Below are positions 9,216 through 13,135 of a stretch of DNA of 21,125 nt, piece by piece. Numbering within the stretch: the first letter of the stretch is position 1; the number at the start of each line of letters is the position of its first letter. The notes below the pieces were generated by a model that ran no database searches, was not told where the DNA came from, and saw only the letters and a program-made list of their open reading frames with translations. The translations under genes were made by a program, and so were the position numbers. Origin of the DNA: a virus (Duplodnaviria > Heunggongvirae > Uroviricota > Caudoviricetes); IMG/VR virus record IMGVR_UViG_2526164601_000021, positions 1-21,125 of that record, one strand, 5' to 3'.

Positions 9216-9512
9216 TTAACTAACAATCCAGTCCGTAGCAACAACATCCTCTGGAGCTAAATCAATCGCATGGATTTTCCCATCCCGGATGGTGCGCCAG
9301 TGCTTTCGTGATCCACCTTCGGGCCATACCCATACACCTTCAGGCCAGGATGCTCGACGGCATACGATTGCATACCCTGTTTTAATCCTCTCTCTCGCGG
9401 TATGCAACGACAGGTTTGCCTTTGGACTTTCAGGTACAGGATGGTGAATGGCCTGAAACAGCCCCATTTTGGGGTGATACCAGCGTTTATTACGTGGTTC
9501 TGCCTCCGACAT
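9216..9512 (-). CDS. Hypothetical protein (about 98 aa; track ORF 9216..9578, start moved to the ATG giving MSEAEPRNKRW..)
   Basis: ORF track frame; Trp-rich C-terminal region (GYAIVCRRASWPEGVWVWPEGG); start chosen to minimise overlap with the Rha ORF. Confidence 0.4.
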   Translation of the reverse strand: MSEAEPRNKRWYHPKMGLFQAIHHPVPESPKANLSLHTARERIKTGYAIVCRRASWPEGVWVWPEGGSRKHWRTIRDGKIHAIDLAPEDVVATDWIVS

Positions 9513-9519
9513 CACCTGC

Positions 9520-10158
9520 TTAAAGGCTTTCCGGAAGGGGGGCCAGGGCCACAATGGAGCGTCGCGCAAGCAAACCATCTGGAGTTAAAAACTCATGCGT
9601 ATCGGTGGGAATCCGGAAAGCGTTGACCAGGTTGCGACATTTGGCTTCAGTCAGGCCACATTTCGCCGCCAGCTGGCGGTAGCCAATGTAGCCTTCCGGA
9701 ATATTGCCTTTCTTGATTTGCTCGACGGTTTCAGCGACTTCGGACACTTGTGCCGATACTTCGGCTACCTGGGCATTAACGGCGTTGATCCGGCGTTCAT
9801 GCTCAAGATGCATTTGCGCCATTTCAGCCAGGATTTCGGCTTTTGATTTTAACTGTACCCGGGCATTCTCCAGTTCGCGCCAGCGGTCCACCAGCCGGGC
9901 GGTAAATTCGGGAGAAAGCTGTGCGACGACAATGATACTGTCACGCTTGCCTTGTTCGCCTTCAAAGATGTAAGCCTTGGAAAATCGACGAGGGCCAACT
10001 GATTGTTTATTTTCAATTTCCTCAATTTGAGGAAATTGAATGACACCACCTTTAGTTAATACTTCAATGGTACGCTTCACATTATCATGACGCTTACCTA
10101 CCAGTTCCGCGATCTCAATACTGGTCATTGTCGCTTTTTGAGAGATGGACAGATTCAT
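9520..10158 (-). CDS. Phage regulatory protein, Rha family (antirepressor-like)
   Basis: 212 aa; N-terminal TSIEIAELVGKRHDNVKRTIEVLTKGGVIQFPQIEE matches the Rha-domain pattern; coiled-coil middle region; start overlaps the stop of the upstream ORF. Confidence 0.75.
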   Translation of the reverse strand: MNLSISQKATMTSIEIAELVGKRHDNVKRTIEVLTKGGVIQFPQIEEIENKQSVGPRRFSKAYIFEGEQGKRDSIIVVAQLSPEFTARLVDRWRELENARVQLKSKAEILAEMAQMHLEHERRINAVNAQVAEVSAQVSEVAETVEQIKKGNIPEGYIGYRQLAAKCGLTEAKCRNLVNAFRIPTDTHEFLTPDGLLARRSIVALAPLPESL

Positions 10159-10373
10159 CAGTGCACCTCCACGCAGTTCATCGGCAGATTCCAGTAATTG
10201 AGGATCTCCATCGCATCAAGAGTGAAGCGAGCAGCAAAAATGCAGGGTTCTTCGGGAAGGTATGAGCGCGCTTCTGCTTCGGTAGCAGCCATGACGCAGA
10301 TATAGAGGTGTTTTTGGCAGGAATAGAAACGCCAGATAAATTCAGAATGAGTTGGGGTAGGGGTAGTAGCCAT
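10158..10373 (-). CDS. Small protein, possibly Icd-like (host cell division inhibitor family)
   Basis: 71 aa; AATEAEARSYLPEEPCIFAARF resembles the Icd-like pattern from memory; strong RBS (AAGGAGG); translationally coupled to the Rha gene. Confidence 0.4.
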   Translation of the reverse strand: MATTPTPTHSEFIWRFYSCQKHLYICVMAATEAEARSYLPEEPCIFAARFTLDAMEILNYWNLPMNCVEVH

Positions 10374-10380
10374 AATGGCA

Positions 10381-10556
10381 GCCTCCTTTTGCTAATTTAA
10401 GGAGCTACCGCGTGAGGTTCCAATCTCAATGGCGGTAGCACTGACTGGGTTGGAACTACCGGCGCAAAAGGGAACCGGCCTGCCTTTCGGCAGCCCAGCC
10501 AGCACTACCATTGATCTCTGAGCTAAACGCTACGTATGGCTGTGCGATGGCATGAC
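10381..10556 (-). ncRNA. Highly structured, repeat-rich leader upstream of the Icd-like/Rha operon; candidate C4/CI-type antisense-RNA immunity region
   Basis: Multiple mutually complementary boxes on the transcribed strand (CGGTAG x2 vs CTACCG; GTTCCAA vs TTGGAAC; CTGCC-tttc-GGCAG hairpin), allowing alternative pairings. Confidence 0.3.
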
Positions 10557-10558
10557 AC

Positions 10559-10581
10559 AAAAAAAGACGCTTTCGGCGTCT
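10559..10581 (-). terminator. Rho-independent terminator (minus strand) ending the upstream leftward transcript
   Basis: Stem AGACGC / GCGTCT with 5 nt loop followed on the minus strand by T7. Confidence 0.6.
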
Positions 10582-10685
10582 GTGTCGCCTTTTGCATTAT
10601 CCGGGGTTCCAATCCCGGCACCCGTTTTTCTAAGGTGCCGTAGAAATATACCCCACGATAATGCCAGGGCGCAACAGTCAGTATT

Positions 10686-10937
10686 TTATGCTTTGGCGGA
10701 TTTCTTCCGGGCTTGCTTGCAGGCGTAGGCCATTGCTTTAGCTTTCACTTCATCCAGCTTCCCGGTGATCACTTCTTTTCCGAGAGTGACAAACCAGTCA
10801 TAGCAACGCCAGTAATGTCTTGATTTGAAAGTTGAGGTAGCGAACCGTCATTTTGACACCCCCAGCGCGAGTAAAGAATGCAGATTATCGCGTGAGTGGT
10901 GGACGAAGAGTGATGGTAAAAGACTGTAGTTGTTCAT
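10686..10937 (-). CDS. Small ORF (about 83 codons) interrupted by an in-frame TGA near 10848-10850; possible pseudogene or read-through
   Basis: Manual translation from the ATG with AAGGAG RBS: MNNYSLLPSLFVHHSRDNLHSLLALGVSK-TGA-RFATSTFKSRHYWRCYDWFVTLGKEVITGKLDEVKAKAMAYACKQARKKSAKA; absent from the ORF track, consistent with an internal stop. Confidence 0.3.
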
Positions 10938-11182
10938 AGTGTAGTGACTCCTTGCTTTCGGAGCCGCCATCGACTGTTCCACGGTCTGGTGGCGGCGCAA
11001 TAAAGGCTGGAACACCGTGAGTCAACGGGGGCTTTTCAGCCACCTATATTGCACCGCCATAGGTATGGCGGCGGCAATAATACGAAAAACTAAACAGTTT
11101 GTCTCAAAAAGTTGACCGGTGTACCAATCGGTAGTGAATGTACATCGGGGAAATTCACAATTCAACTTAAAATGTTAGAAAA

Positions 11183-11761
11183 CTAATTTATCAATTCAAT
11201 CGCCATCTGATACAACGCCATTTCATCGGCATTGTGCCGTATGAAATCTGCTTTTCCGCCTATTTTTCCATCAGCATGAACAGGGACCAGCCAGGGATAT
11301 TGTTCTCGGACCTCGGCTGGCGCTGCGTACTGGTGGTGCCATTTACACAAAGGGAGGACATATTTATGTGCGTTCTCTGCCGTTCTCCCGAAGATATGGT
11401 GCAGGGATACCACTGGGCTATGTTTCCCGTGAATATGGCAGGCAATGCAGGGGAGAGTACCGATAGCGGTCTGTATCCGGCGTTCATCGGCTGTGAGTGA
11501 TCTGCCCTTCAGGCCGCGTGACGTGCGTGTTTTTTTGGACGGAGCGGATACAGCTTTCTCTTTTCTCCGCTGGTCATATTGCTTTGCTTTTTCAATTTTT
11601 TTTTGCCGATATTCAGGCGATGCGGCTTTTTCTCTCGCTCGCTGCTGCTGGCGTTGAGCTTGTTGAAGGCGCTTTGCCCTTTGTTCCTCTCGCCAGGCCG
11701 GGTCAGCCAATTTTTGCATGGCTTTTTGTCTCTGTTTCTCCCAATAGCTCTGTTTCTGCAT
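11183..11761 (-). CDS. HNH-type nuclease, Ref-like (recombination enhancement function family): basic low-complexity N-terminus plus C-terminal Cys/His motif
   Basis: 192 aa; N-terminal K/R/Q-rich region; C-terminal CIACHIHGKHSPVVSLHHIFGRTAENAHKYVLPLCKWHH resembles an HNH zinc-binding core. Confidence 0.55.
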   Translation of the reverse strand: MQKQSYWEKQRQKAMQKLADPAWREEQRAKRLQQAQRQQQRAREKAASPEYRQKKIEKAKQYDQRRKEKAVSAPSKKTRTSRGLKGRSLTADERRIQTAIGTLPCIACHIHGKHSPVVSLHHIFGRTAENAHKYVLPLCKWHHQYAAPAEVREQYPWLVPVHADGKIGGKADFIRHNADEMALYQMAIELIN

Positions 11762-12034: not shown

Positions 12035-12393
12035 TGGTGAAACGTGTTTTGAAAATTTACATCGCGGGGCCGATGACTGGTTATCCAGATTACAACCGTG
12101 CGGCGTTTAATGCGAAAGCGATCGAGCTGATGGCTGAAGGGCATATCGTTCTGAATCCAGCGGTGTTACCTGGTGGCCTTTGCCAGAGTGAATACATGGA
12201 TATTTGCCTGGCAATGGTGCGTTCTGCTGATGCGATCTATTTGCTCAATCGATGGGAAGAATCGGTTGGTGCTCGTGCAGAGCACGCGCTGGCTGAAAAG
12301 CTGGGGCTGACTGTAATTTATGAGTCACCAACCAACATTGAATGCCAGGTTGCTCCACATATTTTACCGGGAACTGGTCAATGCACTGCGTGA
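12034..12393 (+). CDS. DUF4406 family protein (nucleoside 2-deoxyribosyltransferase-like fold)
   Basis: Track ORF 12007..12393 trimmed to the ATG; KIYIAGPMTGYPDYNRAAFNAKAIELMAEGHIVLNP..WEESVGARAEHALAEKLGL matches the DUF4406 pattern. Confidence 0.75.
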   Translation: MVKRVLKIYIAGPMTGYPDYNRAAFNAKAIELMAEGHIVLNPAVLPGGLCQSEYMDICLAMVRSADAIYLLNRWEESVGARAEHALAEKLGLTVIYESPTNIECQVAPHILPGTGQCTA

Positions 12394-12647
12394 CTATCGC
12401 TGCTGTATATCACGGCACAGAACAGCTTCGTGAGCGTTTAGCCCATACCATTTCCTATTACCTTTCTTTATCTCATGAGCACAAGCTCCGCCAGAAGGTA
12501 ATGATCAAATTTATCATGAGGTTATCGAAATCCCTGGCAAACGCCGATCCAAAGAATCCATTACCGAAAGAGGCAATGAATTACCTGAAGTCCTGCAACG
12601 TTGTTTCTGAAGATGGCGTTCTTTTGGTTAGAAGGAGTTCTGCGTGA
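12381..12647 (+). CDS. Hypothetical protein (about 88 aa)
   Basis: Track ORF 12342..12647; likely start ATG 12381 or GTG 12390 overlapping the preceding stop (GTGA). Confidence 0.4.
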   Translation: MHCVTIAAVYHGTEQLRERLAHTISYYLSLSHEHKLRQKVMIKFIMRLSKSLANADPKNPLPKEAMNYLKSCNVVSEDGVLLVRRSSA

Positions 12648-12961
12648 GCTGGCGGGGATGGGGAAGGGCAGAAATCATGATACTCCGCCAGTGCGCCGGA
12701 ACTATGACGGTCGAGAGTATTGGGAAGCTGATCGGTCGTACCGGTGATGCCGTCAGGACTAAAGCGCGGGAGTTGGGGATCAGCATGATTCTGAAAGGAG
12801 ACTTTCATCCGTCAGACAAATACCGGCAGAGCGATATAGAACTGGCACGGCAGCTTCATCAGTGTGGTGTTCCCCGCCGTGAGATCGCGGAAAAACTCGA
12901 AATGCCCCTGGGCATGATTAATCAGTACGTTTATTTCGAAAGGAGAGTGTATGAAGTCTGA
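12644..12961 (+). CDS. Small DNA-binding protein with two HTH-like segments
   Basis: ORF track (GTG start overlapping the previous stop); segments SIGKLIGRTGDAVRTKARELGIS and DIELARQLHQCGVPRREIAEKLEMPLGMINQYV look like sigma-70 region-4 / LuxR-type HTH. Confidence 0.5.
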   Translation: MSWRGWGRAEIMILRQCAGTMTVESIGKLIGRTGDAVRTKARELGISMILKGDFHPSDKYRQSDIELARQLHQCGVPRREIAEKLEMPLGMINQYVYFERRVYEV

Positions 12962-13135
12962 AGGTTTAACGACCCGCACAACTGGCAGAGCGTAACGCTG
13001 AGTATGTACGGAAATTTCCCGACTTGAGAAAGCGTGTGCTGCGCTAGCGGCGGAGAATGCTGGGCTGAAACATGCAATGGCTGTAACTCTGAGCATGTGT
13101 CGGTCACGGATGCAGGGCAGGCCGGAGTTGCCGCA

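Follow-up and report, generated by a model that had tools for sequence, protein, structure and literature searches.

Sequence evidence for a P1-type C4 antisense RNA immunity switch in a D6-like phage-plasmid of Escherichia coli

Introduction

In phage P1, the c4 RNA is released from a precursor by RNase P processing, and Rho-dependent polarity operates in the same operon. Ant synthesis is repressed by this RNA in P1 (PMC8546580). Here, we asked whether the leader of a small gene pair on the minus strand of a phage record (IMG/VR IMGVR_UViG_2526164601_000021) encodes a switch of the same kind, which sites such an RNA would act on and how far the unit extends. The stretch analysed, referred to as the window, comprises positions 1 to 21,125 of that record and is part of a D6-like P1-type phage-plasmid of E. 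coli. An original prediction had proposed an arrangement like that of c4-icd-ant in P1 immI, located at 9520..10581, with short complementary boxes in the leader and a terminator that isolates the unit. C4-type antisense immunity is a textbook system whose RNA is covered by an Rfam family, and the present element is a known one; counterparts of the c4–icd–antirepressor region have been described for D6-like phage-plasmids, and D6-like plasmids such as pYU39_89 have been reported with homologues of c4, icd and the antirepressor (PMC6799933).

Our comparisons make it very probable that the minus-strand unit is a P1-type C4 antisense RNA immunity switch, i.e. an immI-type module. The predicted gene arrangement was borne out, with matches to C4, to an Icd-like ORF and to an Ant-type protein. 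The extent had been set too small, since the full unit begins, on the minus strand, with a promoter near 10674 and ends with the stop codon of the antirepressor at 9216. Among 5426 complete E. coli genomes, 310 carry the same leader. No tRNA genes were found in the window.

Results

A search with the Rfam C4 model (RF01695; gathering score 45) identified a C4 antisense RNA gene at 10428..10515 on the minus strand, at the place and on the strand predicted, with a score of 76.7 bits and a match that covers the full model (1-87). The RNA consists of a 17-bp closing stem, a first hairpin (CUGCC/GGCAG), a second hairpin with the b' segment in its loop, and a single-stranded a' segment. The minimum free energy (MFE) fold is identical to the model structure (z = -5.46), the fold of the whole leader yielded a z value of -5.45, and 0 of 200 shuffles folded as well as either the C4 or the leader. 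In an alignment of 28 homologous leaders, the closing stem was 99.6% paired and 8 of its 17 pairs were doubly changed, as were 4 of the 5 pairs in hairpin 1. Alignment to the annotated 77-nt c4 of P1 places the predicted mature RNA at approximately 10509..10431, with a length of about 79 nt.

The same segment contains a 39-aa ORF (10511..10392) annotated as an 'ash family protein' in RefSeq and PLSDB, a name that derives from the P4 CI system. A small protein encoded here might explain why the leader is conserved, and the ORF scored 33 bits against Pfam Phage_ASH (PF10554; gathering score 26) and matched PHROGs named 'transcriptional repressor'. However, it is located within the strong covariance-model match to C4, the differences between leader types were spread evenly over the three codon positions (19/18/17, 17/14/19 and 16/16/19), the substitutions were compensatory in the RNA stems, and stop codons break the frame both in leader L032 and in P1, whose C4 has been shown by experiment to be an RNA. 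Given the stops and the absence of a third-codon-position bias, we rejected the ORF as a real protein under amino-acid selection and treat it as a spurious ORF inside C4; conservation for a small protein is extremely improbable. RefSeq and other records nevertheless call the C4 gene an 'ash family protein' or a 'regulatory protein', and give no non-coding RNA.

The two pairing segments of the C4 RNA have complementary sites on both sides of the gene. The b' segment (CCCUUUUGC; 10464..10472) is exposed in the loop of hairpin 2, and the a' segment (GUUCCAA; 10450..10456) is the single-stranded segment 3' of this hairpin. Downstream, the a2 target (UUGGAAC; 10417..10423) is located 50 nt upstream of the icd ATG and forms 7 of 7 base pairs with a', while the b2 target (GCAAAAGG; 10392..10385) forms 8 of 8 base pairs with b' at -19 and overlaps the icd Shine-Dalgarno sequence AAGGAGG (10388..10382), the two together occupying 10382..10392. 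Upstream, the a1 target (UUGGAAC; 10606..10612), complementary to a', is located in the loop of leader hairpin 2, and the b1 target (UGCAAAAGG; 10588..10596), complementary to the b' loop, is located in the leader linker. Boxes as short as these would not be significant alone. The 7-nt a-match and the 8-nt b-match downstream of C4 were found together in 5e-5 of shuffles, and the procedure that recovers the annotated sites of P1 finds sites of 7-9 nt at homologous positions here.

To these matches can be added the comparison of the 28 leaders, in which the a'/a2 and b'/b2 segments were 90.6% paired, with covariation, and the a1/a' and b1/b' segments 90.0% paired, whereas slid controls never rose above 61%. 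We observed three-way covariation of a'/a1/a2 and of b'/b1/b2 across 11 natural specificity types. The mean energy of the cognate a'+b' duplexes was -22.8 kcal/mol as compared to -13.2 kcal/mol for non-cognate combinations, and the cognate target ranked first in 11 of 11 types, upstream and downstream alike. The suggestion that an antisense RNA targets repeated sites was thus confirmed by the three-way covariation, although b'/b2 and a1/b1 had been overlooked. The sampled loci contained 7 a-alleles and 7 b-alleles in 11 combinations, and all four combinations of GGAAC or GAGAC with GCAAAAGG or GUCAAAGG occur. A genome-wide scan with an Icd alignment, for which the patterns were strict, yielded only 6 loci, including three new P1-type alleles. 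The sequence elements of the immunity unit, their complementarities and their covariation were in this way observed directly.

The boxes listed in the original prediction were all present, and some of them are functional pairs. GTTCCAA (10456..10450) and TTGGAAC (10423..10417, with a second copy at 10612..10606 that had been missed) correspond to a' and a2, and CTGCC (10493) with GGCAG (10484) corresponds to C4 hairpin 1. CTACCG, which starts at 10438, and the CGGTAG that starts at 10410 are part of an alternative hairpin (10404..10439) with a2 in its loop, seen in predicted folds as well as in the covariation. In this hairpin, the 3' strand of the C4 stem, GCUACCGC (10439..10432), pairs with the downstream sequence GCGGUAGC (10411..10404); it was 95.1% paired in the 28 leaders with 5 of 8 pairs doubly changed, and it can form only in the unprocessed precursor. 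The other CGGTAG, starting at 10461, coincides for the most part with the 3' arm of C4 hairpin 2 and was rejected as a functional box. Nor are the CGGTAG boxes targets that overlap the ribosome-binding site, since that overlap belongs to the CCCUUUUGC/GCAAAAGG pair.

The small ORF downstream of the leader (10158..10373, minus strand; 71 aa) was correctly taken as Icd-like. It matched NCBIfam NF033153, the family of Icd-like cell-division inhibitors, with 49.5 bits (cutoff 25) and PHROG 1426 with 138 bits, and showed 63% identity to P1 Icd over 59 aa (BLASTP, E = 6e-28); a Pfam search was without match. Its stop codon shares one base with the start codon of the next gene (TGATG, at 10158). This gene (9216..10158, minus strand; 313 aa in relatives), proposed to encode a Rha-family regulator, indeed codes for an Ant-type antirepressor with a Rha N-terminal domain: the score to Pfam Phage_pRha was 38.9 bits (threshold 29.9), and an intact relative matched PHROG 63, 'anti-repressor Ant', over its full length (residues 2-313; 216 bits).

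The antirepressor frame is not intact in the window. The C-run at 9542..9537 is longer by one C, which divides the 313-aa gene into ORFs of 212 aa (10158..9520) and 120 aa (9578..9216), and the 212-aa 'Rha' ORF listed previously is the front part of this frameshifted gene. Should this be a true mutation, the present copy of the module may have lost its activity. The locus could then be a relic, in which C4 has nothing left to control, and the extra C is found neither in a 99.9%-identical plasmid nor in any other relative; the same is true for two 1-nt deletions, at about 10817 and 10807, that break orf85 (55 aa in relatives). On the other hand, the comparison with the nearest relative revealed 17 gap openings (27 gapped positions) in 7.4 kb, mostly single-base and spread across many genes, which is the usual signature of assembly errors, and the RNA elements and icd are all intact and identical to those of many plasmids. 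Because of the many other 1-nt indels, the antirepressor frameshift is probably an assembly error, and we consider a relic unlikely.

The promoter of the unit was predicted by homology. The putative sigma-70 promoter at 10645..10674 (minus strand), equivalent to P51b of P1, has a -35 box TTGCGC (10674..10669), an 18-nt spacer and a -10 box TATATT (10650..10645). The c4-a1b1 model aligned TATATT to the annotated -10 box (TATAGT) of the P1 promoter P1c4/P51b, and all leader types keep the TTG of the -35 box and a -10 box of the form TAnnnT at identical alignment columns. A simple consensus promoter scan did not call this TTGCGC/TATATT pair. Transcription is predicted to start near 10638.

The first segment of the transcript (10560..10638, minus strand) is an isrK-type leader, corresponding to the a1/b1 leader of a C4 system, with a score of 62.5 bits to Rfam RF01394 (gathering score 50). 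Hairpin 1 is followed by hairpin 2, whose loop contains a1, then by a linker that contains b1 and finally by an intrinsic terminator. The c4-a1b1 family (RF03163) scored only 22.4 bits on the same leader, overlapping the isrK match. In P1 and L032, the same leader element is matched by both families; in L032 both are above threshold at overlapping coordinates, and in P1 immI the scores are 51 bits for c4-a1b1, 35 bits for isrK, including a terminator-like hairpin, and 68.8 bits for C4.

The terminator (10558..10581, minus strand) was recovered both by a terminator scan and as the terminal hairpin of the isrK model. Its G+C-rich hairpin (10581..10565) has the stem AGACGC/GCGUCU and the loop CGAAA, and is followed by seven U residues, the T-run ending at 10558; a 185-nt leader separates the T-run from the icd ATG. 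While the hairpin itself had been correctly predicted, the isolating role ascribed to it was refuted: the terminator is located inside the unit, between b1 and C4 in the a1/b1 leader, as in P1, where a homologous hairpin with a U-run is found at the equivalent place. Because of this position, polymerase must pass the terminator before it can transcribe C4 and icd-ant. The promoter scan revealed no promoter-like site in the interval from the terminator to C4, and a terminator at this place, if not leaky, would restrict the amount of C4 made.

One way in which the terminator might be used is that C4, bound to b1, blocks an antiterminator and favours the terminator (10581..10558) in the manner of P4 CI, and C4 would thereby limit its own synthesis along with that of icd-ant. 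The MFE fold of the isolated window leader pairs b1 (AUGC...GGCG) with the 5' arm of the terminator, the terminator hairpin is restored when b1 is blocked (-23.5 vs -22.0 kcal/mol), and an analogous UGCGG/CCGCA pairing is present in P1-type leaders. However, of 9 leader types, only three (those of the window, L089 and L090) have the alternative pairing as their MFE structure, whereas L014, L009, L050, L032 and L033 favour the terminator form even without C4. The energy differences are at most 1.5 kcal/mol, and the placement of b2 exactly on the Shine-Dalgarno sequence is left unexplained. We therefore find control by C4-induced termination quite improbable.

The isrK match points to another use of the terminated transcript, which would be additional to the C4 model rather than replace C4. 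The short RNA (10638 to about 10558), which contains both a1 and b1, may serve as a decoy in trans, capturing C4 itself or the C4 portion of read-through RNA and so turning on translation of icd-ant; the state of the switch would then be set by the proportion of transcripts that terminate rather than read through. Apart from the isrK score above threshold, a1/b1 are as complementary to a'/b' as are a2/b2 in the window, they covary with them, and in the fold predicted for the complete read-through leader, a1/b1 pair with a'/b' in cis. Some transcripts pass the IsrK terminator in Gifsy-1, where short IsrK supplied in trans increases anrP translation about 140-fold through pairing with the downstream 'orf45' region (PMC4825925). 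The published Gifsy-1 numbering (AUGs at +107 and +119; pairs G28-C162 and G31-C159) fits related leaders within 1-3 nt, the corresponding positions being the 5' AUGG of C4 and the a1:a' helix. Hfq binding of IsrK, partial read-through and trans-activation of the antirepressor are reported for Gifsy-1 only (PMC4825925), and in P1 the annotation of the role of a1/b1 reads 'putative'. Positive control of this type is a serious possibility, to which we assign somewhat less than an even chance.

Upstream of the promoter, we found a diverged C4-like RNA, C4-II (10985..11064, minus strand), which scored 40.2 bits to RF01695, i.e. below the gathering score (E = 5.9e-6 in a search of 1.1 kb). It folds in the C4 shape (z = -4.63) and is conserved in D6-like plasmids. 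No relatives outside D6-like elements were found among the phage records, and there is hence almost no covariation to draw on. Its putative targets and a small ORF are located at 10848..10981 (minus strand): UGGAACA (10981..10975) and GAGUCA (10950..10945), the latter overlapping the Shine-Dalgarno sequence AAGGAG (10953..10948) of a 29-aa ORF (10937..10848) that is ATGA-coupled to orf85. Both complementarities occurred together in 1.5e-4 of shuffles. No terminator was predicted between C4-II and the isrK/C4/icd/ant unit, and the P51a/operator region of P1-like isrK-type loci had no homologous counterpart in the region upstream of C4-II. A combined scheme, in which the terminated leader RNA of about 80 nt titrates C4 in trans through a1/b1 and C4-II adds a two-tier antisense cascade feeding into the unit, is tentative and on balance rather doubtful.

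Discussion

The RNA elements of the locus are arranged in the same order as in immI of P1 and P7 (P51a/P51b - a1 b1 - c4 - a2 b2 - icd - ant1/ant2); in the P1 record, a1, b1, c4, a2, b2, icd and ant1/2 are all annotated. The loci are also alike in the terminator-like hairpin between b1 and c4, in the C4 fold with single-stranded a' and with b' in the loop of hairpin 2, in the placement of b2 on the icd Shine-Dalgarno sequence, and in the overlap of the icd stop with the antirepressor start, in addition to the similarity of the Icd proteins. As in the heteroimmunity of P1 and P7, a few a and b bases set the specificity; the P1 alleles are UUGACAG and GUUAGUGA, as compared to UUGGAAC and GCAAAAGG here. 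Unlike that of P1, the leader belongs to the isrK sequence type; its terminator is stronger, and the spacer before C4 is 22 nt longer. Further differences are that the antirepressor with its Rha N-terminal domain is not homologous to P1 Ant1/2, and that an extra C4-like RNA is present upstream.

If the unit works as in P1, expression, processing, the translational block and polarity would all follow the P1 scheme. Transcription would start at about 10638 from the P51b-like promoter and first yield the leader of about 80 nt, with a1 presented in a hairpin loop, b1 in the linker and the terminator at the end. Polymerases that pass the terminator would transcribe C4, which by analogy to P1 would be excised from the precursor by RNase P as a stable RNA of about 79 nt. 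This RNA would bind the icd-ant mRNA, with the loop of hairpin 2 (b') pairing to b2 and the adjoining single strand (a') to a2. Because the b2 duplex would cover the icd Shine-Dalgarno sequence, icd would not be translated, and because the antirepressor start overlaps the icd stop, the antirepressor would be turned off too; polarity, again as in P1, would also remove transcription into ant. A C1-type repressor would then stay active and keep the plasmid prophage lysogenic, and C4 could also work in trans against incoming phages with matching a/b alleles. In a search for the P1-type C1 operator (ATTGCTCTAATAAATTT, up to 3 mismatches), there was no match in the window, another difference from P1. 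An operator-like sequence, ATTGAATTGATAAATTA, is located at 11200..11184; as this was a single occurrence, we do not claim an operator.

The same locus is found in the orf83-orf82 region of D6 and in the D6-like plasmid prophages pYU39_89 and p13ZX28-90. Over the 1.4-kb region at 9400-10800, sequence identity is 91.5% to D6 and 99.9% to p13ZX28-90. In phage D6, the homologous genes are annotated as icd-like and putative anti-repressor, and the a-allele is GAGAC as compared to GGAAC here, while the frameshifts are peculiar to the present copy. The database records of D6-like elements have no RNA annotated at this locus, only the 'ash family protein'.

The RNA immunity of P4 (CI; seqA/seqB/seqC) likewise relies on a small RNA processed from the leader of its own target operon and on repeated complementary sites upstream and downstream. 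The P4 CI RNA brings transcription to a premature end, and this system is not known to involve an antirepressor. The isrK-orf45-anrP locus of Salmonella Gifsy-1 shares the leader RNA family, a terminator followed by a read-through transcript, a downstream antirepressor translationally coupled to a small upstream ORF, and pairing of the leader with a region about 130 nt downstream. It differs in that the interval between isrK and anrP is described as coding ('orf45'), that IsrK is described as an activator, that C4 is unmentioned and that no icd gene is described at the locus. If the decoy function is true, the long-unexplained a1/b1 sites of P1 and the IsrK activator of Salmonella would be one device, and 'orf45' of Gifsy-1 would correspond to a C4 RNA. 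If confirmed, the connection of isrK with the a1/b1 leader would bring together two bodies of literature that at present make no reference to one another.

For the phage-plasmids themselves, the allele series is a ready-made table of immunity specificity for P1-like and D6-like elements, which are frequent carriers of resistance genes.

The C4 immunity operon and its relatives

All features discussed here are on the minus strand. The segment at 9400-10800 (1.4 kb) shares 99.9% identity with the E. coli plasmid p13ZX28-90 (NZ_MN101851.1) and 91.5% with phage D6, which is a plasmid prophage of the P1 type. D6-like plasmids contain homologs of the c4 antisense RNA, icd and the antirepressor, as well as a second c4/icd region (PMC6799933), and the homologous genes in D6 are annotated as 'inhibition of cell division; similar to P1 gene icd' and 'putative anti-repressor'. 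The C4 leader of the window is also present in 310 of 5426 complete E. coli genomes, more distant versions occur in many Stx phages, and one Stx phage record already has C4 and isrK annotated side by side. The C4 immunity element belongs to a known type, and the phage lineage that carries it is known as well.

The original prediction was an operon of an Icd-like and a Rha-family gene at 9520-10581 with a P1/P4-type antisense leader. The reading as a system of the type of immI, the P1 immunity operon, is supported with two corrections, one concerning the terminator and the other the pairing at the ribosome-binding site. The first ORF (71 amino acids, 10373..10158) is Icd-like (49.5 bits with the Icd-like model of NCBIfam, threshold 25; 63% identity to P1 Icd) and shares one base, in TGATG, with the next ORF, which starts at 10158 and contains a Rha N-terminal domain.

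A whole-window Rfam scan at gathering thresholds yielded exactly two matches, C4 (RF01695) at 10515..10428 with 76.7 bits against a threshold of 45, and an isrK (RF01394) leader at 10638..10560 with 62.5 bits against a threshold of 50. When folded alone, C4 adopts the structure of the model (z = -5.46), and the whole leader is similarly stable (z = -5.45). Transcription would start near 10638, since a putative -10 box, TATATT (10650..10645), aligns in the c4-a1b1 model with the -10 annotated for the P1 promoter P51b, and since every leader type retains TTG at -35 together with TAnnnT at -10. The hairpin and T-run of the predicted terminator are found at 10581..10558 but do not isolate the unit; they are an internal part of it, as also in P1, where the isrK alignment includes a terminator-like hairpin and U-run between b1 and c4.

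Target sites and their covariation

To locate the antisense targets, we defined the pairing segments of C4 by alignment column, b' as the loop of hairpin 2 and a' as the single strand following it, and took the longest complement of each elsewhere in the leader as its target. Run on P1, this procedure recovers the annotated a1, b1, a2 and b2. Of the two upstream sites in the window, a1 (UUGGAAC, 10612..10606) occupies the loop of leader hairpin 2 and b1 (UGCAAAAGG, 10596..10588) the linker. Downstream, a2 (UUGGAAC, 10423..10417) precedes the icd ATG by 50 nt and b2 (GCAAAAGG, 10392..10385) overlaps the icd Shine-Dalgarno sequence AAGGAGG. The pairing at the ribosome-binding site is that of b' with b2. 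Folding gave weak and inconsistent support to a P4-like mechanism, in which termination would act through b1.

Among 80 viral loci, 6 genome loci, P1 and D6, we identified 11 specificity types, in which a', a1 and a2 change together, as do b', b1 and b2. The a-allele GGAAC is replaced by GAGAC, GGUCU, GGCCU, GGCGU, GACAG or AGCAG in other types, and the b-allele GCAAAAGG by GUCAAAGG, GUCUAAGG, ACUCAAGG, GUUAGUG, ACUUACG or GAUUGUG. The mean duplex energy was -22.8 kcal/mol for cognate and -13.2 kcal/mol for non-cognate combinations, and in all 11 cases no target was better than the cognate one, whether upstream or downstream. Formal pair counts in an alignment of 28 sequences supported both the structure and the a/b pairings. 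For C4 and the leader, 91.6% of the cells were paired (99.6% in the closing stem), as compared to 81.2% in shuffles and at most 47% in slid alignments. The corresponding values were 90.0% for a1/a' and b1/b' (at most 61% when slid) and 90.6% for a'/a2 and b'/b2, the latter being conservative with the a2 columns of the P1 group out of register.

The short complementary boxes of the original prediction are all present, and one pair, CTACCG/CGGTAG, corresponds to an alternative hairpin, GCUACCGC/GCGGUAGC (10404-10439), in which the 3' strand of the C4 closing stem (10439..10432) can pair with a second copy of the 5' strand located downstream (10411..10404), so that the loop presents a2. Since this hairpin covaries (95.1% of cells paired, 5 of 8 pairs doubly changed) across four sequence backgrounds including P1, the precursor probably adopts either of two conformations.

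The leaders upstream of icd (loci L005-L090) carry alleles shuffled combinatorially on near-identical backbones. All four combinations of GGAAC/GAGAC with GCAAAAGG/GUCAAAGG occur, and the same leader is followed in some loci by a Rha/Ant gene of the D6 type and in others by an Ant1 gene of the P1 type. In one locus, L037, the a1 allele mismatches its own a' and a2, and this locus looks like a recombinant.

RefSeq annotates a 39-amino-acid 'ash family protein' at 10511..10392, which matches Pfam Phage_ASH with 33 bits as well as PHROGs named 'transcriptional repressor'. However, the ORF lies within the C4 RNA, the differences between leader types have no third-position bias, there is no coding signature, and the frame contains stops in P1 and in the related locus L032. 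We therefore rejected it as a protein and consider it a translated RNA gene; the Pfam family and the PHROGs it matches seem to include C4 genes that were translated in the same way.

One leader element under two names

The P1 record annotates the operator Oc4, promoters P51a and P51b, a1, b1, c4 (77 nt), a2, b2, icd and ant1/ant2, and this stretch matches the Rfam models for C4 (68.8 bits), c4-a1b1 (51 bits) and isrK (35 bits). We conclude that isrK and c4-a1b1 are one element, the a1/b1 leader, because both match the same bases in P1 (48217-48311), both exceed their thresholds at overlapping coordinates in L032 (1246-1334; isrK 76.3 bits, c4-a1b1 52.7 bits), and one or the other precedes C4 in 13 of 13 related loci. 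Rfam places c4-a1b1 (RF03163) in clan CL00128 and isrK in no clan, and open-access reviews still treat IsrK and c4 as separate, unrelated entries.

In Gifsy-1, according to experimental work, the IsrK terminator is leaky, short IsrK pairs in trans with the 'orf45' region and thereby activates the downstream antirepressor, orf45 is conserved as nucleotides and not as amino acids, and its region gives rise to a processed stable RNA, STnc1160 (PMC4825925). The published positions match the related leaders within 1-3 nt, the AUGs at +107 and +119 corresponding to AUGG at the 5' end of C4 and the pairs G28-C162 and G31-C159 to the a1:a' helix. When the window's leader is read through in full, a1/b1 are likewise predicted to pair in cis with a'/b'. 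Based on this behavior, fit and pairing, we suspect that Gifsy-1 IsrK serves a C4 system as its a1/b1 decoy.

A second C4-like RNA and neighboring modules

Further upstream, a diverged C4-like RNA, here called C4-II (11064..10985), scores 40.2 bits with RF01695, below the threshold of 45. It folds like C4 (z = -4.63) and is conserved among D6-like plasmids, but no record annotates it. Downstream are complements to its a'-like (UGGAACA, 10981..10975) and b'-like (GAGUCA, 10950..10945) segments, the latter on the Shine-Dalgarno sequence of a 29-amino-acid ORF that is ATGA-coupled to the small gene orf85 (region 10848-10981). Both complements together were obtained in 1.5e-4 of shuffles. No relatives were found among phage records outside D6-like elements, so the covariation evidence for C4-II is minimal. 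Directly upstream of this region is a gene for a Ref-type RecA-dependent nuclease (11183-11761; Pfam RecA_dep_nuc, 118.7 bits).

Plasmid p13ZX28-90, the closest complete plasmid, also contains a second immI-type module (26393-27577), located outside the window, with c4-a1b1, C4, icd and a Rha-family gene, which adjoins the lytic replication gene and has a/b alleles exactly as in P1.

Single-base indels

The antirepressor gene encodes 313 amino acids in D6, p13ZX28-90 and a Shigella plasmid, and its intact product is a full-length match to PHROG 63 'anti-repressor Ant' (216 bits). In the window, one extra C in the run at 9542..9537 splits it into ORFs of 212 and 120 amino acids. Single-base indels relative to the 99.9% identical plasmid are located at 9537-9542, ~10807, ~10817 and 12365-13090; those at ~10807 and ~10817 break orf85. 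Over 7.4 kb, the comparison with the nearest relative has 17 gap openings (27 gapped positions), mostly single-base and in several genes, and additional genes are probably frameshifted. Since so many single-base gaps are spread over several genes against a near-identical plasmid, we think that they look like assembly errors rather than biology.

Proposed mechanism

The best-supported reading of the operon is the P1 immI mechanism, in which the synthesis of Ant is repressed by c4 RNA (PMC8546580). The pairings and sites described here show the sequence logic of the switch. Expression, RNase P processing and polarity would be as in P1, for which they were reportedly described by Citron and Schuster (1990, 1992), Biere et al. 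(1992) and Heinrich et al. (1994). The leader would be transcribed from its promoter, with some polymerases passing the terminator, and C4 would be cut out of the transcript to base-pair with a2/b2. Such pairing would block the icd ribosome-binding site and thereby keep the coupled antirepressor off.
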